Source: Sumerlaeia bacterium | GTDB lineage: Bacteria > Sumerlaeota > Sumerlaeia > SLMS01 > JAHLLQ01 | Reading direction: 5' to 3' | Length of the DNA: 13,460 nt | Assembly: GCA_040219255.1 (NCBI GenBank) | Contig: JAVJSW010000047.1 | Span: forward strand, 1-13,460 | Notes under the pieces: model-generated | Databases searched by the model: none | Seen by the model: only the letters and a program-made list of their open reading frames with translations | What the model was told of the DNA's origin: nothing | Made by a program: the position numbers and the translations under genes | Part shown: piece by piece, positions 1,203 to 13,460 of the stretch | Numbering within the stretch: position 1 is the first letter of the stretch | Layout: each line of letters begins with the position of its first letter

Positions 1203-2393
1203 TTGGCAGTCGAGTGGCGCGTAGGAACCTTCCCTCCGCGCTCTCTCAGACCCAGCGCGACAGCTCCCGTCATCCGGCCCCTCTCCTTGAGCAGCGCGAC
1301 CGAGGCGCAATACACCTACGACTCCCGCGGATTCCTGGAATCGGTGACGTTAGGGTCCGACACGATCGCGTACGTCCTCGACGGCCAGGGCCGTCGTGTG
1401 GCCCGCGAGGAGAATGGTGTTGTCAAAGACCGCTTCCTGTACAAAGACTTCATCAACCCGGTGGCGTGGCAGGACGCGGGCGACAGCGTCGCGTATTTCG
1501 TTTACGGCGGCCGGGGGCATGTGCCGGACTGGATGGTGAAGGGCGGGGCGTATTACCGCCTGGTGACCGATCACCTGGGCAGCGTGCGGCGCGTGGTGAA
1601 TGTGGAAACGGGAGTTGTGGTGCAGGAAATGAACTACGACGAATGGGGCAACGTGATCGCGGATTCCAGCCCAGGCTTTCAGCCGTTCGGGTACGCGGGG
1701 GGCCTATACGACGGGGCGACGGGGCTGGTGCATTTCGGGTTCCGTGAGTATAGCCCGCAGACGGGGCGGTGGATGACGAAGGACCCGATTGGGTTTGATG
1801 GGGGGTGGAATTGGTATGAGTATGTCGCTTCCTACCCAATAGGCAGTATTGATGTTTCCGGGCTACGATTCACGTACCCAGGTCCTGTCGAAGATGTGCG
1901 GGCGGGTGTATTGATAGCTGATATGCCGAGGGGAGAGCTTCCAAACGCAATAAATGATACTTTGCGGTATGTGACAAGAGTCGGTGGAACAAGAAGCTAC
2001 ACAGCCACATCGGGGTTTTATAGTAATGCGGACTTTGTCAACGGGAGAAGGAACATGTTAGATAGCATTCAAGGTGACATACAAGGCGGTATTACAAGTG
2101 GGACGGAGAAGTTTTGGGTGGATTATACTCGCTCGCCAGAATATTATGCTTTTGGTAATAGTCGAGTAATAGCAAATTGGAGTTTGGTAACAGGGCCCGA
2201 TGGGCGAGCGTACATAGACATAAATTACTCAATGACTGATGAGTTTACAGATCCATTTGATATAGGGGAGGCTCTTCGCGACCACGGGCCCACATGGTCA
2301 GCGGAGGATCACGCAATTATAAATGCCTTACAAGATCATTTTGGAAAGCCTTTTGATATGCGGCTCGACGGCTCCGAAAAACTGGTAAAATGA
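1203..2393 (+). CDS. Orphan Rhs module: truncated YD-repeat/Rhs core plus ~175-aa C-terminal toxin tip
   Basis: YD repeats start near 1300 (YTYDSRG, YVLDGQGRR, TDHLGSVR, YDEWGN). Core motif FGYAGGLYD...[10 protein letters not shown] is present; boundary PIGSIDVSGL ends at 1865. True start is uncertain and the module may be silent. Confidence 0.88.
   Translation: MAVEWRVGTFPPRSLRPSATAPVIRPLSLSSATEAQYTYDSRGFLESVTLGSDTIAYVLDGQGRRVAREENGVVKDRFLYKDFINPVAWQDAGDSVAYFVYGGRGHVPDWMVKGGAYYRLVTDHLGSVRRVVNVETGVVVQEMNYDEWGNVIADSSPGFQPFGYAGGLYDGATGLVHFGFREYSPQTGRWMTKDPIGFDGGWNWYEYVASYPIGSIDVSGLRFTYPGPVEDVRAGVLIADMPRGELPNAINDTLRYVTRVGGTRSYTATSGFYSNADFVNGRRNMLDSIQGDIQGGITSGTEKFWVDYTRSPEYYAFGNSRVIANWSLVTGPDGRAYIDINYSMTDEFTDPFDIGEALRDHGPTWSAEDHAIINALQDHFGKPFDMRLDGSEKLVK
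1658..1811 (+). repeat. Rhs core direct repeat, copy 2
   Basis: Aligns to 1-154; similarity ends abruptly after the ...GGWN codons. Confidence 0.95.
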
Positions 2394-2869
2394 AGAAGAG
2401 GTTATACTTCTTTCTGGGCACCGTGTCTTTTGTGTCAATAATAATGGTGGTTTGTTGTAAGTATATGTCTTACGAAATGCTTAGCAAAGACTGGCTGTAT
2501 TCCCTTGAATGCTCTGGGGGTTCAGTAGTGGAATTGGGAAATTATGCCGGAGATGAGTGGATATTTTACGACAAATATAGCAAGAAGGACGTGGTCCTTG
2601 GCTTGGCGGAGATCAGGTTGTATCCGCAAGGATACCTTGTTATAGGTCATCCAATGACCGGAAATGCGAGTGCGCCAGATGTTGAGTCGCATGTTGATTA
2701 CAGCAAGAATTTATACTTATTATTTGACAAAGAAAGCTGTGAATATAAAATACTACACAACGAGTCCGATCTTAATAAATTGGGAATTTCCTTGCAAAAT
2801 GAAAACTCAAACGATTACAGAATTGTAAGACCTTTTGGAACCAAGGAGCATAGGGATAGGAGTAAGTAG
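2390..2869 (+). CDS. Putative immunity protein with N-terminal membrane anchor or lipoprotein-like signal
   Basis: ATGA overlap with the toxin stop. MKKR followed by a hydrophobic stretch and VVCC, then a soluble domain. Low GC. Confidence 0.8.
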   Translation: MKKRLYFFLGTVSFVSIIMVVCCKYMSYEMLSKDWLYSLECSGGSVVELGNYAGDEWIFYDKYSKKDVVLGLAEIRLYPQGYLVIGHPMTGNASAPDVESHVDYSKNLYLLFDKESCEYKILHNESDLNKLGISLQNENSNDYRIVRPFGTKEHRDRSK

Positions 2870-3049: not shown

Positions 3050-4264
3050 CTAATACTCCACCCGAAACGTCGGGCTCTCCTCCGGCCGCTCTCCCCGCCG
3101 GTCGTACATTTTCGTCGTCGAGATATCCGCGTGCCCGAGCCAGGCCTGGACCCGGGCGATGTCGGCCCCGTGGTCGAGGGCGTTCGTCGCCGCCGTGGCC
3201 CGCAGGGCGTGGGGGCCGATGCCTGAGGCGGCGATGCCCGCCTCGCGGCAATAACGCGCGACGATTTCGCGGTGGACGCTGCCCGGATCGAGCCCCCGCG
3301 CGAGGCCTTCCCCCGTCGCGTTATTGACGACAGGCCGGAACAGCGCCCCGCCCCCGTCTTCGCCGTGCCCAGCCGCCTCCAGGTACTCGTGCACCAGGCG
3401 CCCCGTCGCCGGATGAAGCGGCACATAGCGCACCTTCGCCCCCTTGCCAAACACCCGCAAATGCGCCACCCCGCGCCGCGCTTCGATGTCGCCGACGCGC
3501 AGGCGGCAGAGCTCCTCGCGTCGCAGGCCGTGATAGAGCAGCATGGACAGGATCGCCCGGTCGCGCTTGGCCTTGAGCGAATCGCCCCGGGGCGCCGCCA
3601 GGAGCGCTCGCGCCTGATCGTCGCCCAGCGCCGGGGTTTTGCCTTCGCGCGACTCGCTGCGGGGGCGCTTGACGCCGTCCACCGGGTTGCCGGCGACGGC
3701 GTTGCATTCGCAGAGGTGATCGAAAAGCGACGCCAGCGCGGACAGCTTGCGCCGGATCGTGGCCCGCGCCAGGCCGCGCGCCTCCAGATCGCCGCGCCAG
3801 GCGATCACATGCGCCCGCGTGACCCGGACGAACTCGCCCGCCTGGCGGATGCCGACGAAGGCCATGAAGTCCTCGAGATCGCCCCGGTACGCGCGGCGCG
3901 TGCGGGGGTTGTCGATGTTGGCGAACCACTCGAGCTCGGGCGGCAGGGCGGCCAGCCCTTGGAACTCGGCCGCCGTCAGGTGCCGTCCTTCGGGGCCAGC
4001 AGGAAGAAAGGTGGGGTCGGGGGCCGGTGGCGAGGGAGAAGCGGAAGCGGGCGGGTTTTCGCTGGCGGAGGAAGACGGCGGGGTGGGGGAGAGGAGGGCG
4101 CGGTCTTCGCCGCTGGCACCGGAAGCCTCTCCGGACTCTCGCTCCAGACAATTGTCATCCGTGGATGCGGAAGGCCATCGGAGCGGCCGATGCTCGGAAG
4201 GAGAGTCCGCGAGAAAAGACGCATCCCTTTTGTCTTCTAACTGCCCAGCTTGACGATCACCCAT
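3050..4264 (-). CDS. Tyrosine recombinase/integrase (XerC/D-like, probable resolvase)
   Basis: Catalytic residues are all present: HGLRREEL (R), VFGKG (K), HALRAT (HxxR), LGHADISTTKMY (H, Y). N-terminal core-binding region NPRTRRAY...TIRRKLSAL. ATG at 4264 has AAGGAG upstream and is preferred over 4345, which overlaps the inverted repeat. Confidence 0.93.
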   Translation of the reverse strand: MGDRQAGQLEDKRDASFLADSPSEHRPLRWPSASTDDNCLERESGEASGASGEDRALLSPTPPSSSASENPPASASPSPPAPDPTFLPAGPEGRHLTAAEFQGLAALPPELEWFANIDNPRTRRAYRGDLEDFMAFVGIRQAGEFVRVTRAHVIAWRGDLEARGLARATIRRKLSALASLFDHLCECNAVAGNPVDGVKRPRSESREGKTPALGDDQARALLAAPRGDSLKAKRDRAILSMLLYHGLRREELCRLRVGDIEARRGVAHLRVFGKGAKVRYVPLHPATGRLVHEYLEAAGHGEDGGGALFRPVVNNATGEGLARGLDPGSVHREIVARYCREAGIAASGIGPHALRATAATNALDHGADIARVQAWLGHADISTTKMYDRRGERPEESPTFRVEY

Positions 4265-4344
4265 CACAGAACTCCTTTGTAGCTGACAAACAATAATCGC
4301 TGCCACCGAAAAGCGAAAGAGAACACAGTCCGCTTCTGCGCCCA

Positions 4345-4376
4345 TGACGCGCGATAATCCTTTTTATCGCGCGTCA
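4345..4376. other. Candidate tyrosine-recombinase core site, 13-6-13 perfect inverted repeat
   Basis: TGACGCGCGATAA-tccttt-TTATCGCGCGTCA, directly upstream of the recombinase gene. Confidence 0.75.
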
Positions 4377-4582: not shown

Positions 4583-4612
4583 CGGCCAGTGATAGTGAAA
4601 AGGAGCAAAACT

Positions 4613-4921
4613 ATGGAAAAGACCATCTCGACGCGGGACCTCCGCGCCACCGTCGGCGAAATTATCAACACCGTCCGCCTGCGCGGGGACACCTATCTCG
4701 TCGAACAGCGGGGCAAACCCCAGGCCGCCCTCGTGCCCCTCCACATCTACGAAGCCTACCAGAACAACCGCAAACGCCTGGTGGAACTCATGGACACGGT
4801 TGCGGAGCGCAACGCGGACCGGGATCCGGAGGAAATCGAAGCGGCCATCGACGAAGCCGTCGCCGAAGTGCGAGCCGGGCGCCGGGCGGCGAAGGCCCCG
4901 CAAACGCCCGAAGCGCGATGA
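4613..4921 (+). CDS. Type II antitoxin, Phd/YefM family
   Basis: MEKTISTRDLRATVGEIINTV...YLVEQRGKPQAALVP matches the Phd fold pattern. AAGGAG precedes the ATG at 4613; ATGA overlap with the PIN gene. Confidence 0.9.
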   Translation: MEKTISTRDLRATVGEIINTVRLRGDTYLVEQRGKPQAALVPLHIYEAYQNNRKRLVELMDTVAERNADRDPEEIEAAIDEAVAEVRAGRRAAKAPQTPEAR

Positions 4922-5352
4922 ATCCCCCGCGCGTCGTTCTCGACACCAACATCCTTGTCAGCACCCTTCTTCGACATCAAGGTCCGGCCGCCGAAGTCCG
5001 TCAGGTCTGGCGCCGTGGCGGCTTCGTGCTGTGCAGCTCCACCGTGTTGCTGGATGAACTCCAGGACGTTCTGTCACGCCCCTGGTTCGCGAAGGTTTCC
5101 CGGCTGGAGGCACCGGAAATCCGGGAATTCATCGACCGGCTCTCGCGCGAGGCGGTCCTGGTGGAGCCGGAAACGGTCGAAGCCGTCGTCCGCGACCCCG
5201 ACGACGATCACGTTCTGGCGGCAGCCATGGCGGCGAGGGCTGACATCATCGTGACCGGTGACAAAGACTTGCTCGTCCTGCAACCCGCTCACCGCGGGAT
5301 CGCCATTGTGACCCTGAAGACCTTTCTTGAGAGCATCGGCGAGGAAGGGTAG
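4918..5352 (+). CDS. PIN-domain toxin (VapC-like, PIN_3 type)
   Basis: RVVLDTNILVS...LDEL...RDPDDDHVLAAA...IIVTGDKDLL acidic PIN motifs. Confidence 0.93.
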   Translation: MNPPRVVLDTNILVSTLLRHQGPAAEVRQVWRRGGFVLCSSTVLLDELQDVLSRPWFAKVSRLEAPEIREFIDRLSREAVLVEPETVEAVVRDPDDDHVLAAAMAARADIIVTGDKDLLVLQPAHRGIAIVTLKTFLESIGEEG

Positions 5353-5651: not shown

Positions 5652-6224
5652 TCACTTGAGTGCGCGCCTGCGCTGTAGCTGCTGCTTCACGCCGGTAGCA
5701 TTCAGCCGCCACTCCAGCATCTCTGTGCTCACGCCGTAGGTGTGAGCGGCTGCGCCTCGTTCCACCTTAGACGCGGCGATCTTCATCGCGGCGGTGCGAG
5801 GCACCAAAAGCACGCCCGCCAACCAGTTCGCCTCATCCTCTTGCTCCTTATCGTAAGAATTGAGGAGCATGCACCCATCTTCGGAGACATCCACGCGAGC
5901 GGCAATGTGGCCGATGAGCAGGTGAGACAGTTCATGCATCGTGGAACTGCGCTGCCGTGGCTGCGAGTGCGACGAATTCAGGATGATGAGCTCACCCATC
6001 CCATCGAGACACAGAGTGATGGCTGACCAGCTCTTCGGATCATGCCGAAGCAACTGGTCGAGAGCATCCTGGGGAACCCCCGGGATGTCTTCCGGGCGAA
6101 GGATTCTAACCCCCAAGAACTCCGCCAGGGCATACGGGTCCAAAGGGTCGGCGTGATCCAGACCCAGTTCGTTGCGGTACTCTTCCGACAGCTTTTCGCA
6201 CCAGCTTTTGAATCCTCGCTTCAC
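5652..6224 (-). CDS. ImmA/IrrE family zinc metallopeptidase (CapP-like)
   Basis: RQRSSTMHELSHLLIGH (HExxH) and EQEDEANWLAGVLLVP, with a C-terminal HTH-like YGVSTEMLEWRL. Starts immediately after the HTH gene stop. Confidence 0.93.
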   Translation of the reverse strand: MKRGFKSWCEKLSEEYRNELGLDHADPLDPYALAEFLGVRILRPEDIPGVPQDALDQLLRHDPKSWSAITLCLDGMGELIILNSSHSQPRQRSSTMHELSHLLIGHIAARVDVSEDGCMLLNSYDKEQEDEANWLAGVLLVPRTAAMKIAASKVERGAAAHTYGVSTEMLEWRLNATGVKQQLQRRRALK

Positions 6225-6584
6225 TCACTCGACTCCGTTCGGATTGCAGGTGTTTCCTCTGGACACAGCTTCCGCCCGTTCTGCGGCGAGGATGAGTTGT
6301 GCGAGCGCTTGCGCTGTCGCAGGCTGGATCGAGCTTTCCTTGCGGAAGTGGACGGCTATTGGCGCCCGGGCTGTCGCGGGTTTGATGCCGAGGACTTCCC
6401 CAGGGTCGATGTCGAGCCATCCGCAGATTTTCCCGAAAGTCTGGAGGTCCGGTAGATTCCCTCGCTCGACTCGGGAAAGCGTGGCGGGGCTGATGCCGAT
6501 TTCCTGGGCTGCTTCGCGGATGCCAACGCTCCCGCGCTTCTCAACGATCTTCCGCCCTAGGGTTCGCAGGGTCAGTTTCGACAC
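6225..6584 (-). CDS. XRE-family HTH transcriptional regulator (CapH-like)
   Basis: GIREAAQEIGISPATLSRVERGNLPDLQTFGKICGWL. GTG at 6584 lies 9 nt after AAGGAG (119 aa). Confidence 0.92.
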   Translation of the reverse strand: MSKLTLRTLGRKIVEKRGSVGIREAAQEIGISPATLSRVERGNLPDLQTFGKICGWLDIDPGEVLGIKPATARAPIAVHFRKESSIQPATAQALAQLILAAERAEAVSRGNTCNPNGVE

Positions 6585-6721
6585 AGTTGTTCGCTCCTTG
6601 TGTCGCGTGGTTCCGCCCGGGAGGCTGTTTGGTGCAGAAGTCCTTGGGATTTTTGCCGGTCGTGTTGAAGCCATAAACCGCTGAAAAATAAGGATTTGTC
6701 CAACAGTGTCCCCCTTGTGTC

Positions 6722-6835
6722 GTTTCACGCGTAAGAATTCCGTTTGACTTGAGAGACGACTGGCACGAGAACCGCGAAGTCGTTCTCACCGGAGACGCCA
6801 CAGTTTCGTTTGTAAGACAAGGCGTCAAGTCGAAC
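6722..6835. promoter_or_regulatory. Array of candidate XRE operator boxes in the divergent promoter region
   Basis: GTTTCACGCGTAAGAA (6722), GTTTGACTTGAGAGAC (6742), GTTCTCACCGGAGAC (6782), GTTTCGTTTGTAAGAC (6803). Confidence 0.55.
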
Positions 6836-6865
6836 ATCCCACGCCTCCCGAGGAGGGCCTATCAA

Positions 6866-7933
6866 ATGCACCAGACTCCAGCTACAGCAACCGCTGCTCC
6901 GAAGTGGGCCGCACTGGTAAACGACCGTATCGTCTCCCTACCGCGCCAGCGCGTGCCGGCGACGGTGATCCGCCACCAGGCGGGCGTTCTCGCCGACCAT
7001 GCCCTGGTTCGCGACCACAACTCGCCGGACGATCCCTTCATCGAAGACAACGCTGCGCTCGATCTGGCGCATGGCAACGTCTTCTACAGCGTTCCCGCCT
7101 GTGAGGTGAAACCCCGCCCGCACTGTGCCAGCGAGCCAAAGCGGGCGTATTTCGTCGATGACCGCTGGGAACTCGCCAGTCCTGTTGCCCAAACCGGGCG
7201 CTCGATCCGCGAACTCTTCGGACTCAACGGCGATGTCGAATTGCTGCGTGACCTCGAATCCCCAAACGACACACCGGTCGGTCTCGACGATCCGGCAATC
7301 TTCGGCGACGGTCCGGTGTTCCGTACTCGCAAGGGCACCGCGACGCTGAAGATTTTCGTGAATAACCAGCCCTTCACCGAAGCGGACGGTGTTCGCCGGG
7401 AAATGACTGGCAAGCAGATCGCCGCCCTGGTCGGGATGACCCCCAATGCCGCCGAGATCTCCCGTGTGGAAGGTTCGGTCCAGATTGCCGGTGGTGATAC
7501 GGTCAAGATCGAGAACTGTCAGCACTTCCGCGTCATCAAGAAGTGCGTGATCGCGGGCTTCGAGTCGTCCCGTGTCGAACGTGAACTCGCGCGTCTCCGA
7601 GAGGGGGGCGCGCGGGTCACTTTGGTCGCCAACCCAGATGGCGTCATTTTTCACGATCTGCCCGCCCTCGACGGAACGACGGTCGACGTCCTCGTCAGCG
7701 TGCCATCGGGCTACCCCGGGGGCATGTTGGACAATGCCTTCCTGCCCAAGGATTCTCCGCTGCTGAACGTGCTTCTTGGTGGTGTCCAGCACGCCATCTT
7801 CGCGAATGGTCGCGAGTGGATTCAGAAGAGCCTGCACCCGCACAATGCGCCCGGGAACCAGTGGGACAAGAACAGGCACGGCTTTCACACCTACTACGGG
7901 GAGATGCTCGCATGGGTATCGAAGCGCCAGTGA
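6866..7933 (+). CDS. Multi-ubiquitin-domain (3x beta-grasp) protein fused to a prokaryotic E2/UBC-like domain (BubAB-like), 355 aa
   Basis: AGGAGG at 6851-6856, ATG at 6866. Three internal repeats (LVNDR...RDHNSPDD...GNVFYS; FVDDR...TGRSIRELFG...RDLESPND...GPVFRT; IFVNNQ...MTGKQIAALVG...QHFRV) end in VIAG. They are followed by an E2-like VDVLVSVPSGYP...LDNAFL...GREWIQKSLH...W...FHTYY. Confidence 0.85.
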   Translation: MHQTPATATAAPKWAALVNDRIVSLPRQRVPATVIRHQAGVLADHALVRDHNSPDDPFIEDNAALDLAHGNVFYSVPACEVKPRPHCASEPKRAYFVDDRWELASPVAQTGRSIRELFGLNGDVELLRDLESPNDTPVGLDDPAIFGDGPVFRTRKGTATLKIFVNNQPFTEADGVRREMTGKQIAALVGMTPNAAEISRVEGSVQIAGGDTVKIENCQHFRVIKKCVIAGFESSRVERELARLREGGARVTLVANPDGVIFHDLPALDGTTVDVLVSVPSGYPGGMLDNAFLPKDSPLLNVLLGGVQHAIFANGREWIQKSLHPHNAPGNQWDKNRHGFHTYYGEMLAWVSKRQ

Positions 7934-9441
7934 ACATCGACCTGGACTCGGAAAGGTACGCGCTCCTTCGCATCTCGGGCTCTGCCCGCCGCGAACTGGA
8001 AAAACTCGTGTTCAGCAGGCATCCCGAACGCGAATGGGGGACCTTCTTCATGTTCGGCTTTCGCCGTACTCCGTGGGGCTGTGCGCTCAGCTACGTTTCC
8101 GCTGCTCCACCACTGCCTGGCGATCTCGACCGAAACACCCACGTCGTCAAGATTCGCAGCGGCTACACTTTCCGCGCGATGGGGTTGCTGGATACCAGCC
8201 CCCTGGGCATCGGCGTCGTCCATTCCCATCCCCAAGGCCGGGGAACGATCCCAAGTCCATTGGACGACAAGATGGACCGGTACTTCGGAACCGAACTCTT
8301 CCTGGGCTACGGCGTGGGCAATGAACGCCCCTATTCCAGTCTGATCCTGAATCGTCGCGAAGACGGTACGTTGGAGTTTTCCGGTCGGGTCAGGTTCGAC
8401 GGGCGTTGGATAGCGGTGCGTGAATTCCTCATCGTCGGCGACGCCCTGGAACGCATTTCATCACACCAAAATTCCGGATTCTTCCAAAGGAACGAAGGTC
8501 TTTCCGAGTCAACCACCGCTAGGCTGGAAAGTCTCCTGGGCTCGACCTCTCGCGATCGCCTACAACGTGCCGTTGTTGGCATTGTGGGATGCAGCGGGAC
8601 CGGATCGCCTGCCGTCGAAGCCCTCGCCCGGGCCGGTGTGGGCGAGCTCGTACTGGTCGATCCCCAACGCCTCAGCCCGTCAAACCTCGAGCGTGTTCAC
8701 GGCAGCACGCTCGCTGACGTTTCCGCACTCGAACCGCCGTACAAGGTGGCGTGCATGGCTCGGATGATCCGGGCGATAAATCCCGACTGCCGCGTCAGAA
8801 GCATCGTGGGCAATGTTCTCGATGACGAAGTGCGCGATGAGTTCCTGCGCTGCGATTTGATCCTCGGCTGCTCAGACACCCATCATGCTCGTGCCGCACT
8901 TGGCGACCTGTGCGCCCTTTATCTGGTCCCTTCGCTGGACGTTGGCGTTCAGATGGATGGGCGCGGGGGGAAAGTCTCCAGCCAAACTGCCGAAGTGCTC
9001 AAGCTCTCGCCGGACCTGCCGTGCCCCTTCTGCCACGGACGCATTTCTCCTGTCGCACTAAGCCAGGAGTTGATGAGTGAGGAAGAGCGAGTACAGCGCC
9101 AGCAAGCCGCACAGGAAGCACGCGAGCAGGGTGGAAACCCTGGCGTGTACTGGGCGGATGAGCCTCAACTGCACACAGTCGGGTATCTCACAACCGTTCT
9201 GGGGGCGATGGCAGCAGGCTACGCAATTGGCTGGATGACGGGGTCCTTCGGGATGCCGGGGGATCGGTTTCAGTTCGATCTGAGCAAGCCGAGCTTCGCC
9301 TTCGCACTGGCTCCGGGATCACGAAAGCCCGACTGCACCTGCGGGATGCTGCAAGGCTACAGCGATCAAGGCCGGGCCGACTTCAGCATTTCAAGACCGG
9401 GGCATTGGTCGGCGCCGGTAATCATCGAAGCCTCCCATTGA
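7912..9441 (+). CDS. JAB/JAMM peptidase fused to ThiF/E1-like adenylyltransferase (BubCD-like)
   Basis: JAB: EWGTF...VVHSHPQGRGTIPSPLD (E...HxH-x7-S-x2-D). E1: VGIVGCSGTGS, LVDPQRLSPSNLERVHG, YKV, GCSD, and candidate Zn ligands CPFC and CTC. Start is ATG 7912 (GGGGAG upstream) or GTG 7930 (GTGA overlap). Confidence 0.92.
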   Translation: MGIEAPVNIDLDSERYALLRISGSARRELEKLVFSRHPEREWGTFFMFGFRRTPWGCALSYVSAAPPLPGDLDRNTHVVKIRSGYTFRAMGLLDTSPLGIGVVHSHPQGRGTIPSPLDDKMDRYFGTELFLGYGVGNERPYSSLILNRREDGTLEFSGRVRFDGRWIAVREFLIVGDALERISSHQNSGFFQRNEGLSESTTARLESLLGSTSRDRLQRAVVGIVGCSGTGSPAVEALARAGVGELVLVDPQRLSPSNLERVHGSTLADVSALEPPYKVACMARMIRAINPDCRVRSIVGNVLDDEVRDEFLRCDLILGCSDTHHARAALGDLCALYLVPSLDVGVQMDGRGGKVSSQTAEVLKLSPDLPCPFCHGRISPVALSQELMSEEERVQRQQAAQEAREQGGNPGVYWADEPQLHTVGYLTTVLGAMAAGYAIGWMTGSFGMPGDRFQFDLSKPSFAFALAPGSRKPDCTCGMLQGYSDQGRADFSISRPGHWSAPVIIEASH

Positions 9442-9707: not shown

Positions 9708-10415
9708 TCACCGCCCCCCATGCTCCGCCAGCAGATTCCGCATCCACGCCGGTCCCCGGTGGCGCCAGCGGGGGTCTTGGGCTTTGGGGTGGCCGTCAGG
9801 TCCGGTTGACCAAGTGAGGGCGACTTCATCGTAGCTCTCGTCCTCGCCACGAGCCCGGCTTTCCGGAGGATAGTGCTCGACGATGACGAGGTTTTCACCT
9901 GCAAGTCCAAGCTCCCGCGCGGTGCTCGCTGCCAGTTCCTCGATGGCGTGTGTCACACTTCGCCCCTGGTTGTCGGGGCGTTCGGTGAAAATCGCCAGCA
10001 AGCGCCCGTCTGCCATGGGGTAGAGGGTCCGGTCGCAATGCGCCTGTCCCCCCTGATAGGTCATGCGACGCGGGGCGCCGGCCTCAAAGTTCGCCGTCCG
10101 TTCCCGTTCTCTTTGCCGCTGAACCCGGTGGAAAACCATCAGGGGCAGCGTCAGCTTGTTCTTTCCCACGCGCACTTCGACCATCTCGCCGCCTGGCGGC
10201 ACTTCCACCCGAAATCGCAGGGTGTCTTTGGCGGGATCACCGTCGGGGCCGCGCCCCAGGCGAATGGCTTGGATGAGCCGCGACCCGTCGGCAAACTCCC
10301 GCAAAGCAATGTCGCGCACCGAAACCTGGTCACGGCCACAGAGGATGACTTCTTCGACAAAGCTATTGGCGGCTTCGATCTCCGATGGAGCCGGGGCGTT
10401 TTCGGGGTTCGTCAT
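9708..10415 (-). CDS. Hypothetical protein, probably co-transcribed with the DUF1016 gene
   Basis: Starts 3 nt after the DUF1016 stop with GGAG upstream. Globular-looking C-terminal region (FTERPDNQGRSVTHAIEELA...IVEHYP...SYDEVALTW...PRW). Confidence 0.8.
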   Translation of the reverse strand: MTNPENAPAPSEIEAANSFVEEVILCGRDQVSVRDIALREFADGSRLIQAIRLGRGPDGDPAKDTLRFRVEVPPGGEMVEVRVGKNKLTLPLMVFHRVQRQRERERTANFEAGAPRRMTYQGGQAHCDRTLYPMADGRLLAIFTERPDNQGRSVTHAIEELAASTARELGLAGENLVIVEHYPPESRARGEDESYDEVALTWSTGPDGHPKAQDPRWRHRGPAWMRNLLAEHGGR

Positions 10416-10418
10416 GGG

Positions 10419-11513
10419 TTAGTCCTCCAACTCCTCCGACAATTCCGCCTCGATCTCCGCGATCGAGGGCAGGCTCGAGGCCAGGTCTTGGGGAAGAGCT
10501 GTTGTCAGCTCGTAGTCCGAAACGCCGATGGGTTTGTGGATGTCGCGCAGGGCGTACTCGGCCAGGACGCGGTCTTTCGTCTGGCAGAGGATCAGGCCGA
10601 TGGTGGGCTGGTCCTGATCGTGGCGCAGGAGGTCGTCCACGGCCGAGCAGTAGAAGTTCATCTTGCCGGCGTACTCGGGGCGGAATTTACCGCGCTTCAG
10701 CTCGATCACCACGAAGCAGCGCAGCTTCAGGTGATAGAACAGCAGGTCGATGTAGAATTCTTCCTCGCCAACCGTCAGCGGGTACTGGCGGCCGACGAAG
10801 GCGAAACCCTGCCCCAGCTCGAGGAGGAACTTCTCCAGGTGGCGCACCAGGCCGCTTTCCAGCTCCCGCTCGCGAAACGGCTCGTCGAGCGTCAGAAAAT
10901 CGAAGACGTAGGGGTCTTTGAGCATTTCTTCCGCCAGCGCCGACTGGGGCGGGGGCAGGCTTTGGTCGAAGTTGGTGACGGCGGCGCCCTGGCGCTCGTG
11001 GGCACGGGCCTTGATCATCGCCCCCAGCGTATCGCGGGACCAGCCTTGGGCGAGGGTCTGCCGGGCGTACCAGAGGCGGGTGGCGGGGTCGCCGGCCCGT
11101 TGCAGGAGCAGCAGATTGTGCGCCCAGGGAATGCAGGCGAACACCGAATCGCTGGCTGCAAGTTCCGTGTCTTCAGTAGGCGATTGCGGATTCTCCAATT
11201 GTGCAACGGGCCGTTGCACAATTGGAAAGAGGCCTGGGTGGGCCTCGCGAAACTGAACCATCGCGTAGAGATTGCGCTTCGAAAACCCCTTCACCTCCGG
11301 CAGTTCGTTCTTCAGATCGCTCGCCAACCGGGCGAGGAACCCGGCGCCCCAGCCCGCCTCGTCGCGGCGTTCGGCGATCAGGCCGCCCACTTCCCAATAG
11401 AGGCGCACCAGTTCGCTCTGCACGGCCTGGCTGGCCCGGGTCTGGGCGTGGCGCACCCGTGCCTTGATGTCCCCGAGAAGATGACCGTAGGCCGCGAGGT
11501 CGTCTTTCGTCAT
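10419..11513 (-). CDS. DUF1016/YhcG family PD-(D/E)XK nuclease-domain protein
   Basis: LYWEVG, KGFSKRNL, IPWAHN, LKDPYVFDFL, FLLELGQGFAFVGRQY, YIDLLFYHLKLRCFVVIELK, YAGKMNFY, PTIGLILC, PIGVSDY: characteristic family motifs. Confidence 0.95.
   Translation of the reverse strand: MTKDDLAAYGHLLGDIKARVRHAQTRASQAVQSELVRLYWEVGGLIAERRDEAGWGAGFLARLASDLKNELPEVKGFSKRNLYAMVQFREAHPGLFPIVQRPVAQLENPQSPTEDTELAASDSVFACIPWAHNLLLLQRAGDPATRLWYARQTLAQGWSRDTLGAMIKARAHERQGAAVTNFDQSLPPPQSALAEEMLKDPYVFDFLTLDEPFRERELESGLVRHLEKFLLELGQGFAFVGRQYPLTVGEEEFYIDLLFYHLKLRCFVVIELKRGKFRPEYAGKMNFYCSAVDDLLRHDQDQPTIGLILCQTKDRVLAEYALRDIHKPIGVSDYELTTALPQDLASSLPSIAEIEAELSEELED
11194..11226. repeat. 33-bp palindrome (16-1-16) inside the DUF1016 gene
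   Basis: TCCAATTGTGCAACGG-g-CCGTTGCACAATTGGA, perfect arms. Confidence 0.9.
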
Positions 11514-11580
11514 CGGGAAAGCCCTTCCACATTGAGAAAAAAGAGCTTACTATGGGGCACTGGCGGAAGCAACCCCCACC

Positions 11581-11618
11581 GCTTGGGGTCCGTGGCATTG
11601 GAGGCATGGACCCCAAGC
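11581..11618. repeat. Inverted repeat/hairpin upstream of the DUF1016 gene
   Basis: GCTTGGGGTCC (11581-11591) pairs with GGACCCCAAGC (11608-11618). Confidence 0.7.
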
Positions 11619-12158
11619 GCAAAGCCGACTTCCGTGGTTCAGCGCCCGAAAATTTTCTTTCAAGATTTTTGCGAATCGATTTTTGGTGTTTAAAAATATG
11701 ATTGTTGCAGGATGACTTCCTCCATTTCGCGCACAGCCAATTTCAATTATTGAGATTACAAAGACTTGCCCTTTCTCATAAGCGGAAAAACATTGCATTG
11801 CATGCAATGCCCGGGAAAGGCCGTAGGTACCAGTTGGTTCGACAGCTTAGTAATTGGCGAACAGGAAAAATTGTGGGTCCTCAAAAATTCTAGTTGCGTA
11901 CACACTAGTGAAGCAGTTTCTTATTACCATTGCTCATCCCTAGGCTTCCCTGTGAAGCGAGGTTGATGGCGCTTCCATTTCCTGCACAGCGGAAACTCCT
12001 CGGATTTTCCACATCACATTTGACGACCGAACGGGCGGATTACTCATTCTACACTCCTTAATGCAAATAGTTGCAGTCAAGTGGTTGTAATTCTGGGTAA
12101 CTCCCGCTGAAACCTTCAACCCCCAACCTCGATCAGCATGTCTCAGGAGGCATCACTC

Positions 12159-13460
12159 ATGCGAAACCAACTCCTTCCCATCGCCCTCGCGGCCTGCTCT
12201 CTTTCCCTCGCCCCCCAGGCCCACGCCGCTTGCACCGCGTCCACCCTCACGCCCCTCGCCGATGCCTCGGGCTGTGACTCCTGTGGCGGCTTCCTCCTCC
12301 CCGGAAGTCTCCACGACGACCCCAACACCACCTACTACATCAACTCCGACCTCCCAGAGCAGTTCCAAGGCACCGGCATCCTCTACTCCACCGAGGACCA
12401 ACTCCCCCCCAACGGCACCTCCAGCTCCTCGCTCCGCACCCAGACCAAAAACGGCTTCACCTACATCGACGACAATTTTGACATCTTCCTCTTCCACATC
12501 GAAGGCCAAGGCGGCAGCCAGGGCAAACGCATGGTCGTTTACGCCAAAAACGTCGGCTCTAACACCGTCACCGTCGATCCCAAGCAAGTCATGGTCACCG
12601 ACGGCATCATCCTCGCCGTTCACGAAATGGAAAATGACCTGGCCGAGAAGGTCATGAACGATGATTGGGACACCCCCGTCTCCAGCATGAACATCGCGCC
12701 GGGCCAAGGCAACGTCATCGCCTACTCCAAACGCTTCGACATGTCGAGCAGCGGCACCGACAAGAGCCAGAACATCAACTGCTTTGGCCGCGTCCGCGCC
12801 GATGTTTCGGGCTCCAACCCCAAACTCGAAGTCTACGTCATGGCCATCGACGACGCCGCGATTTCGGAGAATCAGTCCCGCGCCGAAGCTCTGCTCAACT
12901 CCGGCGCCACCAATGATGAAAGCGTCATCGACCTCAACACCGCCCCGGGGTCCTGCGAAACGCGCCGCGCTCTCGGTGTCTTCCCCAGCAAGCAGTGGCG
13001 TAACGACGCTATCACGGTGGACGTCAACGAACTCGGCATGGACGGCGTCAACTTCCGCATGGCCCTCTCCGAGGTCCAAAGCGCCGGTTGCTCAGCCGGC
13101 CGCCAGACCGCTGACGCCCTCCTCTATCCCGGCTTCGCGCCCGCGGATAACGTCGGCAACTACATGATGGATTACTATCTCAAGCTCAAGTTCACGAACC
13201 TGAACTCCGCCAACCCCCGCACCTTCGACCTCAACTTCGGCAAAGACACGGCCGACATCGGCCTCGCCTGGCGCGTTGTCACCACCAACTCCCAGCCCTC
13301 CGACTCGACCATCGACAACGCCACGCTGCGCATCGACTGGGCCGGGCCGAAGCAGTCCACCAATCACGTCTCCTTCTTGGAGAACGATGGCGGCGTCATC
13401 ACCCTTGAGCCCTGCGAAGAAAAATGGGTCGGCATCCACTTCCAGATCGTCGGCAACTCC
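12159..13460 (+). CDS. Secreted protein, DUF3370-like, 3'-partial (at least 434 aa)
   Basis: AGGAGG at 12145-12150, ATG at 12159. Signal peptide MRNQLLPIALAACSLSLAPQAHA-A. Frame is open to the window end with strong C bias at third codon positions. Motifs LPGSL...INSDLPE...GILYST...FDIFLFHI...GNYMMDYYLKLKFTN recall DUF3370; the family call is tentative. Confidence 0.85.
   Translation, partial: MRNQLLPIALAACSLSLAPQAHAACTASTLTPLADASGCDSCGGFLLPGSLHDDPNTTYYINSDLPEQFQGTGILYSTEDQLPPNGTSSSSLRTQTKNGFTYIDDNFDIFLFHIEGQGGSQGKRMVVYAKNVGSNTVTVDPKQVMVTDGIILAVHEMENDLAEKVMNDDWDTPVSSMNIAPGQGNVIAYSKRFDMSSSGTDKSQNINCFGRVRADVSGSNPKLEVYVMAIDDAAISENQSRAEALLNSGATNDESVIDLNTAPGSCETRRALGVFPSKQWRNDAITVDVNELGMDGVNFRMALSEVQSAGCSAGRQTADALLYPGFAPADNVGNYMMDYYLKLKFTNLNSANPRTFDLNFGKDTADIGLAWRVVTTNSQPSDSTIDNATLRIDWAGPKQSTNHVSFLENDGGVITLEPCEEKWVGIHFQIVGNS

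Follow-up and report, generated by a model that had tools for sequence, protein, structure and literature searches.

A predicted ubiquitin-like/E2 precursor with an invariant junction glycine in a BubE-less, Bub-like operon of a Sumerlaeia bacterium

Positions 1 to 13,460 of contig JAVJSW010000047.1 from a Sumerlaeia bacterium (assembly GCA_040219255.1), hereafter the window, contain an open reading frame (ORF) for a protein of 355 amino acids (aa) in which three ubiquitin-like (Ubl) domains are fused to an E2-like domain. It is followed on the same strand by a gene for a JAB/JAMM peptidase domain fused to an E1 adenylation domain, and is preceded by genes for a helix-turn-helix (HTH) regulator and a metallopeptidase on the other strand (Table 1). 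The Bub operons (formerly '6E' or 'DUF6527'), of which Type I was formerly called 6E.1, provide the closest comparison. The Type I operon of Citrobacter sp. RHBSTW-00271 consists of BubAB, BubCD and BubE, and Type I BubAB carries one to three beta-grasp Ubl domains and a UBC-like E2 in one ORF (Ye et al., bioRxiv 10.1101/2024.11.21.623953). From the DNA of the window alone, a cut behind the glycine that closes the third Ubl domain had been proposed, to be made by the neighbouring JAB domain (the original prediction). This proposal is supported by the comparisons given here and coincides with the published behaviour of the homologous Citrobacter system; by homology, it would apply to the window protein as well.

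The ATG at 6866 is preceded by a GAGGAGG ribosome-binding site. As the original prediction stated, the third repeat ends in ...KKCVIAG and the E2-like domain follows directly, with Gly231 encoded by GGC; the junction reads ...FRVIKKCVIAG/FESSRVERELARL..., and the E2 part begins with FESSRVEREL. The sizes expected of the two products, 231 and 124 aa, likewise agree with the translation. The RD-x-(N/E)SP-x-D ... G-x-VF motif of Ubl domain 1 recurs in Ubl domain 2, while Ubl domain 3 alone is the counterpart of the Ubl in the split-gene and single-Ubl relatives described below.

Table 1. Features of the window. Residue numbers are those of the encoded proteins.
Feature	Position	Strand	Basis or remark
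BubAB-like precursor ORF	6866..7933	+	355 aa + TGA stop; three Ubl domains fused to E2
Ubl (beta-grasp) domain 1, residues ~14-77	6905..7096	+	AlphaFold2 secondary structure and confidence (pLDDT); Foldseek to bacterial multi-ubiquitin proteins
Ubl (beta-grasp) domain 2, residues ~93-156	7142..7333	+	AlphaFold2 model; Foldseek
Ubl domain 3 + C-terminal tail ending VIAG, residues 162-231	7349..7558	+	AlphaFold2 model (beta-grasp ~162-225)
Gly231 codon GGC; predicted mature Ubl C-terminus, predicted scissile bond G231/F232	7556..7558	+	
BubB-like E2 domain, residues 232-355, no cysteine	7559..7930	+	Foldseek to Citrobacter BubB; below-cut-off Pfam Prok-E2_E
Candidate E2 catalytic Ser/His (oxyester type), Ser322-Leu-His324	7829..7837	+	Conservation; Citrobacter BubB S333/H335
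BubCD-like JAB-E1 fusion, 509 aa from ATG 7912	7912..9441	+	ThiF Pfam 4.9e-31; alternative start GTG 7930
JAB/JAMM peptidase domain, BubCD residues ~10-185	7939..8466	+	E41, H104-S-H106-P, S115, D118
E1 adenylation domain, BubCD residues ~205-509	8524..9438	+	GxGxxG (226-231), R261, D322, Y413, C371/C374, C475/C477
CapH-like HTH (XRE-type) regulator	6225..6728	-	Pfam HTH_3 2.3e-7; divergent from operon
CapP-like IrrE/M78 metallopeptidase	5652..6224	-	Peptidase_M78 1.2e-13; PADLOC capP 7.7e-8; directly downstream of HTH gene
Rhs/YD-shell fragments	2-706, 1203-2393		
Small ORF in low-GC (43%) stretch	2390-2869		
Tyrosine integrase	3050-4345	-	
Phd/YefM-PIN toxin-antitoxin pair	4589-5352		
235-aa ORF, no Pfam match	9708-10415	-	
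YhcG/DUF1016 PD-(D/E)XK nuclease gene	10419-11513	-	Pfam 1.3e-68 and 1.8e-35

The AlphaFold2 model of the 355-aa protein, built with 32 homologues, has a mean predicted local distance difference test (pLDDT) score of 88.1 and consists of three beta-grasp units, a linker (226-233) and an alpha/beta E2-like domain (234-352). The linker is less confidently modelled than the domains, the pLDDT of the 10-residue blocks over 221-240 being 74 and 79. In the Protein Data Bank (PDB), the top Foldseek matches of the model are bacterial multi-ubiquitin proteins (Escherichia coli ZDHYS365, 9cd2, E 2.5e-10; Citrobacter, 9d5a, 7.2e-10), and the search also reaches Citrobacter BubB (9eae_C: E 1.3e-3, target template-modelling score 0.59, root-mean-square deviation 4.0, 127 columns). 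The ORF has no match to Multi_ubiq (PF14452) at E <= 0.01, and PADLOC and NCBIfam assign it to no family. PF14462 (Prok-E2_E) and/or PF14452 are, however, present in the precomputed annotation of many close homologues, one of which is named 'Multiubiquitin/Prokaryotic E2 family E'; therefore, the 355-aa protein is a divergent relative that falls below threshold.

A word-indexed search with the ORF gave 220 homologues at E <= 1e-3, the best 120 of which are 331-399 aa long with a query coverage of 92-100%. The query, these 120 homologues, six single-Ubl fusions and one distant fusion were aligned (n = 128), with a mean column identity of 45%. Only eight columns are invariant in this alignment, namely G231, P280, Y283, P284, S322, H324, W333 and W350. 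Because it occupies one of only eight such columns, Gly231, which is retained in 128 of the 128 sequences as the original prediction required of its homologues, is not a chance feature. It is also the sole invariant residue of the linker, positions 226-229 and 233-235 being variable. The residue before it is G in 83 sequences and A in 44, so that the Ubl ends in -GG more commonly in this clade than in -AG as in the window, and the residue after it is F or Y in 122. In the E2 part, S322 and H324 (128/128 each) are accompanied by the nearly invariant D289 (127/128) and D274 (126/128).

A second line of evidence is provided by gene structure. Related loci were scanned in one genome per species, which gave 73 loci. 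A fused tri-Ubl-E2 frame is present in 52 of them, all with a BubCD match within 400 nucleotides (nt) downstream, although in one (L028) this is a C-terminal remnant only. In 11 loci the E2 gene is in another frame than a single-domain Ubl gene, and here too BubCD lies within 400 nt downstream in all 11. The remainder comprises two loci with the E2 only, at a contig edge (BubCD downstream in both), six with only part of the Ubl region (BubCD in one), and two that are degraded or in pieces (L030 and L059; BubCD in both). The original prediction had called for a check on whether homologous operons have split genes at the junction, and the 11 split loci have precisely this property: they break at the GG that matches A230-G231, i.e. 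at the predicted cut point. The Ubl ORF ends in ...EGG-stop in four of them (L062, L065, L066 and L072) and in GG plus two to six residues in the other seven (L060, L061, L063, L064, L069, L070 and L071), and the E2 ORF starts with a Met about four residues ahead of the conserved R-[IV]-x-R-E-L. Free-standing E2 proteins of 130-141 aa with an equivalent start also turned up in an exhaustive protein search.

The hosts of the split genes belong to Acidobacteriota, Gemmatimonadota, Armatimonadota, Nitrospirota and other phyla (L060-L066, L069-L072). Their operons share the E2 and JAB-E1 families with the window, with a BubCD identity of 38-44%, and differ from it in having two genes and one Ubl domain instead of one gene and three Ubl domains. 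In a tree of BubCD sequences, midpoint-rooted for drawing only, the seven split loci included and L067 fall on one side of a branch with support 100/99 and the 22 fused loci on the other. Since the split loci fall on one side of this branch, the sequences are consistent with a single splitting event.

The gene downstream overlaps that of the precursor. Its ATG at 7912 sits 22 nt before the BubAB stop, the alternative GTG at 7930 overlaps the TGA, and translation of BubAB is probably coupled to that of this overlapping gene. The best match of the JAB-E1 protein among PDB chains is Citrobacter BubCD, at 1.1e-18 with the single sequence and 5.6e-31 with a profile of 30 homologues. The active-site residues of the JAB domain are intact: E41, H104, H106, S115 and D118 occur without exception in 30 JAB-E1 homologues, and the HSHP motif and the Asp align with the zinc ligands of the Citrobacter protein. 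R261 of the E1 domain, also invariant in 30 of 30, aligns with Citrobacter chain index 229 and is taken as the equivalent of R227 of Ye et al., the chain index being the published number plus two. Between the adenylation core and the conserved TVGY motif, no Tyr other than Y413 is invariant.

The function of these residues in Citrobacter has been described by Ye et al. (bioRxiv 10.1101/2024.11.21.623953). BubCD cuts BubAB just after the conserved G229, as determined by Edman sequencing, and the E28A and D104A substitutions in BubCD abolish the cleavage. The oxyester chemistry and the conjugation, like this cut, have been shown for the Citrobacter proteins only. BubB lacks a catalytic Cys, its S333, H335 and D299 are invariant, and conjugation depends on S333 and H335 of BubB and on the invariant Y370 in BubCD's crossover loop, a loop that contains no Cys. 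The window operon is similar to this system in several respects: a Ubl-E2 fusion with three beta-grasp domains is followed by a JAB-E1 fusion; the junction Gly is invariant (G229 there, G231 in the window); the E2 is free of cysteine and has an invariant Ser/His pair; the Glu, His, His and Asp of the JAB domain are intact, as is the adenylation Arg; an invariant Tyr follows the adenylation core; and a CapH/CapP-like pair lies upstream in mobile-element or defence-type surroundings. The equivalence of S322 and H324 to S333 and H335 is based on motif, spacing and fold rather than on a residue-level alignment.

Proteins of this type were previously interpreted differently. The 6e operons described in 2006 comprise a polyUbl, an E2/RWD-like domain called 'inactive' for want of the catalytic Cys, a JAB-E1 and a metal-binding protein Y; some species carry the polyUbl and the E2-like domain as one fusion (Iyer et al., PMC1779556, Table 1 row 6e). 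The window operon resembles them in its tandem Ubl repeats, which are sometimes E2-fused, and in its sporadic, mobile distribution; it differs in that protein Y (later DUF6527/BubE) is missing. Under that interpretation the product would not be processed at all, but would act as an intact multi-domain protein whose inactive E2/RWD-like fold binds the Ubl domains, and the E2 part of the window protein does indeed lack any Cys. This is nevertheless extremely unlikely, considering that Ser322 and His324 are invariant and match the residues required in Citrobacter BubB, that cleavage has been demonstrated in the Citrobacter homologue, and that Gly231 is invariant and the genes are split exactly there. 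Moreover, an E1 enzyme needs a free C-terminal carboxylate on its Ubl.

The position of the cut was also approached by modelling. JAB residues 1-185, BubAB residues 158-250 and a riding Zn were modelled together, and the ipSAE interface score is 0.83 (median of three runs), compared with 0.48 for the best of three controls. The mark used for this score is reached by 116 of 157 solved complexes and by 2 of 215 mismatched pairs, a calibration that, unlike the present models, used neither custom alignments nor a riding Zn. The runs have a contact agreement of at least 92% and a partner pLDDT of at least 82, and the predicted interface joins JAB residues 41, 104, 106 and 115-118 with BubAB residues 224-233 at the zinc site. 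The model supports this pose without showing it.

A different enzyme might make the cut, for example the upstream M78/CapP-like peptidase or a protease of the host, or another bond in the linker 226-233 might be cut. The metallopeptidase gene lies 0.6 kb upstream, and, as noted above, the linker is modelled with less confidence than the domains. It is very unlikely, however, that either is the case. The HTH partner is the described target of peptidases of the CapP type (Ye et al.), and the upstream pair is inconstant among the related loci, while BubCD follows all the 52 fused and all the 11 split genes. As to the bond, G231 alone is invariant in the linker, and it is the stretch 224-233 that the complex model places at the JAB zinc site.

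The reading that we consider quite probable is therefore that of a cut at the G231-F232 bond by the downstream JAB domain, after which the tri-Ubl, with its -AG end, is adenylated and handed on to targets through an oxyester relay of Tyr and Ser, with control of the CapH/CapP type. The ORF would encode the pre-protein of a Bub-type ('6E') ubiquitination-like conjugation system, made as one chain. The JAB/JAMM domain would bind the third Ubl domain, thread ...KKCVIAG/FE... into its zinc site and hydrolyse the bond between G231 and F232, releasing a BubA-like tri-Ubl that ends in -Ala-Gly and a cysteine-free, BubB-like E2. The E1 domain would adenylate Gly231, and the Ubl would pass by oxyester first to the crossover-loop Tyr (candidate Y413), then to Ser322 of the E2, aided by His324 and an Asp (candidate D289), and finally to target lysines. 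Expression would probably be held off by the CapH-like repressor until DNA damage or phage infection leads to its removal by the CapP-like peptidase. We infer each of these steps for the window protein, and likewise the equivalences proposed for Y413 and D289, the mode of regulation and the biological role; the cleavage itself, in this protein and in its clade, is expected from homology. With such a repressor/peptidase pair upstream, it is plausible that the cut forms a second proteolytic checkpoint, as the original prediction suggested.

Eukaryotic polyubiquitin and ubiquitin-ribosomal protein precursors offer a familiar parallel, in which deubiquitinases expose the C-terminal Gly before E1 activation and the partner is made in a 1:1 ratio. 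The window precursor differs from them in that the fusion partner is the E2 of the pathway itself and the peptidase is fused to the E1. It differs further from polyubiquitin in that its three Ubl domains would stay together as one modifier, there being no Gly-Gly junction between domains 1 and 2 or 2 and 3 of the 355-aa protein. Three-domain Ubls have been found to assemble into dimers and filaments in a Ca2+-dependent manner (Gong et al., bioRxiv 10.1101/2024.11.21.623966).

Several observations weigh against the reading of the operon as a Bub-type conjugation system with an oxyester relay. The match of the ORF to Pfam Prok-E2_E (PF14462) is 18.6 bits (E 0.0016), under the curated cut-off of 25 bits. 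With phmmer the ORF matches no PDB chain at E <= 0.01, the solved BubA and BubB chains included, and with the 32-sequence profile of the ORF the best PDB chain is 9d59, at an E of only 0.15. The tie of the ORF itself to characterised BubA and BubB rests on fold and on the neighbouring gene; it resembles them at the fold level only. The profile alignment of the JAB-E1 protein to Citrobacter BubCD stops at chain residue 315, and Y413 and Y370 are not aligned. The score of the complex model may partly reflect likeness to solved JAMM-ubiquitin complexes. As to a defence role, no phage protection was obtained with any Bub operon tested by Ye et al. (bioRxiv 10.1101/2024.11.21.623953).

The cysteines of the E1 domain also count on this side. 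C371, C374, C475 and C477 are invariant in 30 of 30 JAB-E1 homologues, in a CxxC ... CxC arrangement in which C371 and C374 precede Y413 by about 40 residues. As these two lie where the crossover region begins, the E1 step could involve a thioester. The two pairs look to us like the structural zinc site of ThiF and MoeB, and the four residues may form such a site or may bear on the E1 step. In these four invariant Cys, and in a longer insert before the Tyr, the window E1 differs from that of Citrobacter.

The remaining difficulty concerns BubE (DUF6527), a serine protease and deconjugase that, according to the authors, is encoded by all Bub operons (Ye et al., bioRxiv 10.1101/2024.11.21.623953). 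The window has no BubE gene, and PF20137 finds nothing in the genome of the window, which is 92% complete. Among 40 ORFs that follow BubCD directly in the related loci, none matches PF20137, and when the 73 loci and the window were scanned by motif and tblastn, the positive control (L074) was the sole hit. Of five related genomes, four lack the gene and one carries it on a different contig. Owing to this absence the operon is not a Type I Bub operon in the strict sense, and it is filed here as a variant lacking BubE that works in the manner of Type I Bub. A search of the literature, Table S1 of Ye et al. excepted, gave no account of a clade without BubE; BubAB, BubCD or DUF6527 occurred there in the two Corbett-lab preprints only.

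Without BubE, the recycling of conjugates may also fall to the JAB domain, or the conjugation may not be reversible. A related explanation is that the JAB domain does cut at G231, but that in the BubE-less clade its main task is deconjugation and recycling, so that processing is a by-product and no regulated checkpoint. This overlaps with the explanation favoured here, as both assume a cut at G231. It agrees with the lack of DUF6527/BubE in the window, its genome and the related loci searched, and with the statement that the JAB peptidases of CBASS (cyclic oligonucleotide-based anti-phage signalling system) and Bil cleave conjugates and/or pre-proteins (Ye et al.). In the four split loci whose Ubl already ends in GG-stop, furthermore, the JAB domain is intact with its HSHP motif; in these loci, therefore, it must have a role beyond cutting a fusion. 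In contrast, conjugates accumulated in Citrobacter despite an active JAB domain, which its authors consider to act mainly or solely on the pre-protein (Ye et al.), and the F or Y after the junction Gly in 122 of 128 sequences suggests selection on the precursor site itself. The deconjugation explanation is rather doubtful.

Turning to regulation, 168 Bub operons out of 544 have CapH and CapP as neighbours (Ye et al., bioRxiv 10.1101/2024.11.21.623953). The window has the layout of such a pair, with the HTH gene followed by the M78 gene and both divergent from the operon. Divergent HTH genes and IrrE-like genes recur upstream in the related loci, although the pair is not constant among them. 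In an all-against-all comparison of 1,969 flanking ORFs, the largest clusters are those of the upstream regulators, in 16 and 13 loci, and no cluster downstream of BubCD is common to most loci. For an operator, a search of 6690-6870 found no inverted repeat of 8 nt or longer at the settings used.

Downstream of JAB-E1 the genes are convergent. The 606-aa ORF at 9873-11693 (+) was considered as a third gene of the operon and rejected; it belongs to no family, overlaps the nuclease gene and the 235-aa ORF on the minus strand, and is most likely a shadow frame in GC-rich DNA. The operon therefore appears to consist of two genes. Near the end of the window, an open-ended ORF (12138-13460) has a DUF3370 match of 6.6e-8 and is situated where the GC skew is strongly negative (-0.41 at 12001-12500). 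The borders of the island could not be set, because the window has no tRNA gene and no clear flanking repeats, only one weak 19-nt direct repeat pair.

The BubAB-like gene is single-copy in its own genome and, with this protein as the query, was found in only one of 40 relatives searched, where the match is partial and at a contig end. The related loci, on the other hand, are drawn from many phyla, including Verrucomicrobiota, Planctomycetota and Acidobacteriota, while the figures of Ye et al. feature Proteobacteria and Cyanobacteria. This sporadic spread, together with the integrase and toxin-antitoxin context, fits a mobile cassette.

Different loci in the survey exhibit some further patterns. 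Four of them (L028, L030, L058 and L059) appear to be decayed copies of the operon: L028 retains only the BubCD remnant mentioned above, L030 and L059 have matches in several pieces, and L058 has a fragment of the Ubl fused to BubCD's second half. There are also free-standing Ubl proteins, about 245 aa long, with domains 1 and 2 as in the window protein and a different third domain. Of the 12 Ubl-only proteins retrieved, seven have a DD-x-S ending (DDNS, DDVS, DDTSWH) in place of Gly (P0141, P0143, P0148, P0153, P0161, P0179 and P0190; loci L044, L053, L055 and L056), and the E1 matches near L044 and L056 are confined to the adenylation core. In L023, L035, L048, L049, L052 and L059 the gene after BubCD encodes an AAA+ ATPase that has a C-terminal HTH, and a cluster of proteins of about 770 aa is found further downstream in seven loci; the window has neither, and these genes may represent a neighbouring defence module.

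Among other bacterial systems, Bil and the type II CBASS Cap2/Cap3 pair resemble the window operon in that E1, E2 and JAB activities serve conjugation in defence islands and the JAB peptidase can expose or remove a C-terminal Gly (Ye et al.). The window operon is not a Bil operon. BilABCD has a separate Ubl, a Cys-dependent E2, a JAB and a large E1, in contrast to the Ubl-E2 fusion without Cys and the JAB on a single adenylation domain in the window. Cap2 of CBASS is an E2-E1 fusion without a Ubl, and the PADLOC E1-E2 models match only the E1 core in the window.

The idea of a precursor cut between Ubl and E2 is not new, the architecture having been described in 2006 and the cleavage shown in 2024 for Citrobacter; for the window, the value of the central claim lies in a correct annotation rather than in a discovery. 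What goes beyond the cited papers is that the junction Gly is invariant in a distant, populous clade and that the gene has been split at exactly that point. Because evolution has split the gene at the junction, the mature ends of the Ubl and the E2 are fixed independently, and the fused and split forms together amount to a natural map of these ends.

A second point beyond those papers is that this clade lacks BubE, against the statement that all Bub operons encode it; this raises the question of whether JAB alone both processes the precursor and recycles the conjugates, or whether conjugation is one-way. Tentatively, the window may belong to a large and undescribed branch of two-gene BubAB and BubCD operons that has dispensed with BubE; it would be spread over Verrucomicrobiota, Planctomycetota, Acidobacteriota and other groups and usually be governed by a CapH/CapP-like switch. 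In such a branch the JAB domain would carry out both maturation and deconjugation, or tagging would be irreversible once induced, and with the ThiF-like Cys tetrad the E1 might take a course other than the all-oxyester relay described for Citrobacter. Reduced to two genes and placed behind a switch of the DNA-damage type, such an operon could serve as a convenient model for these systems.

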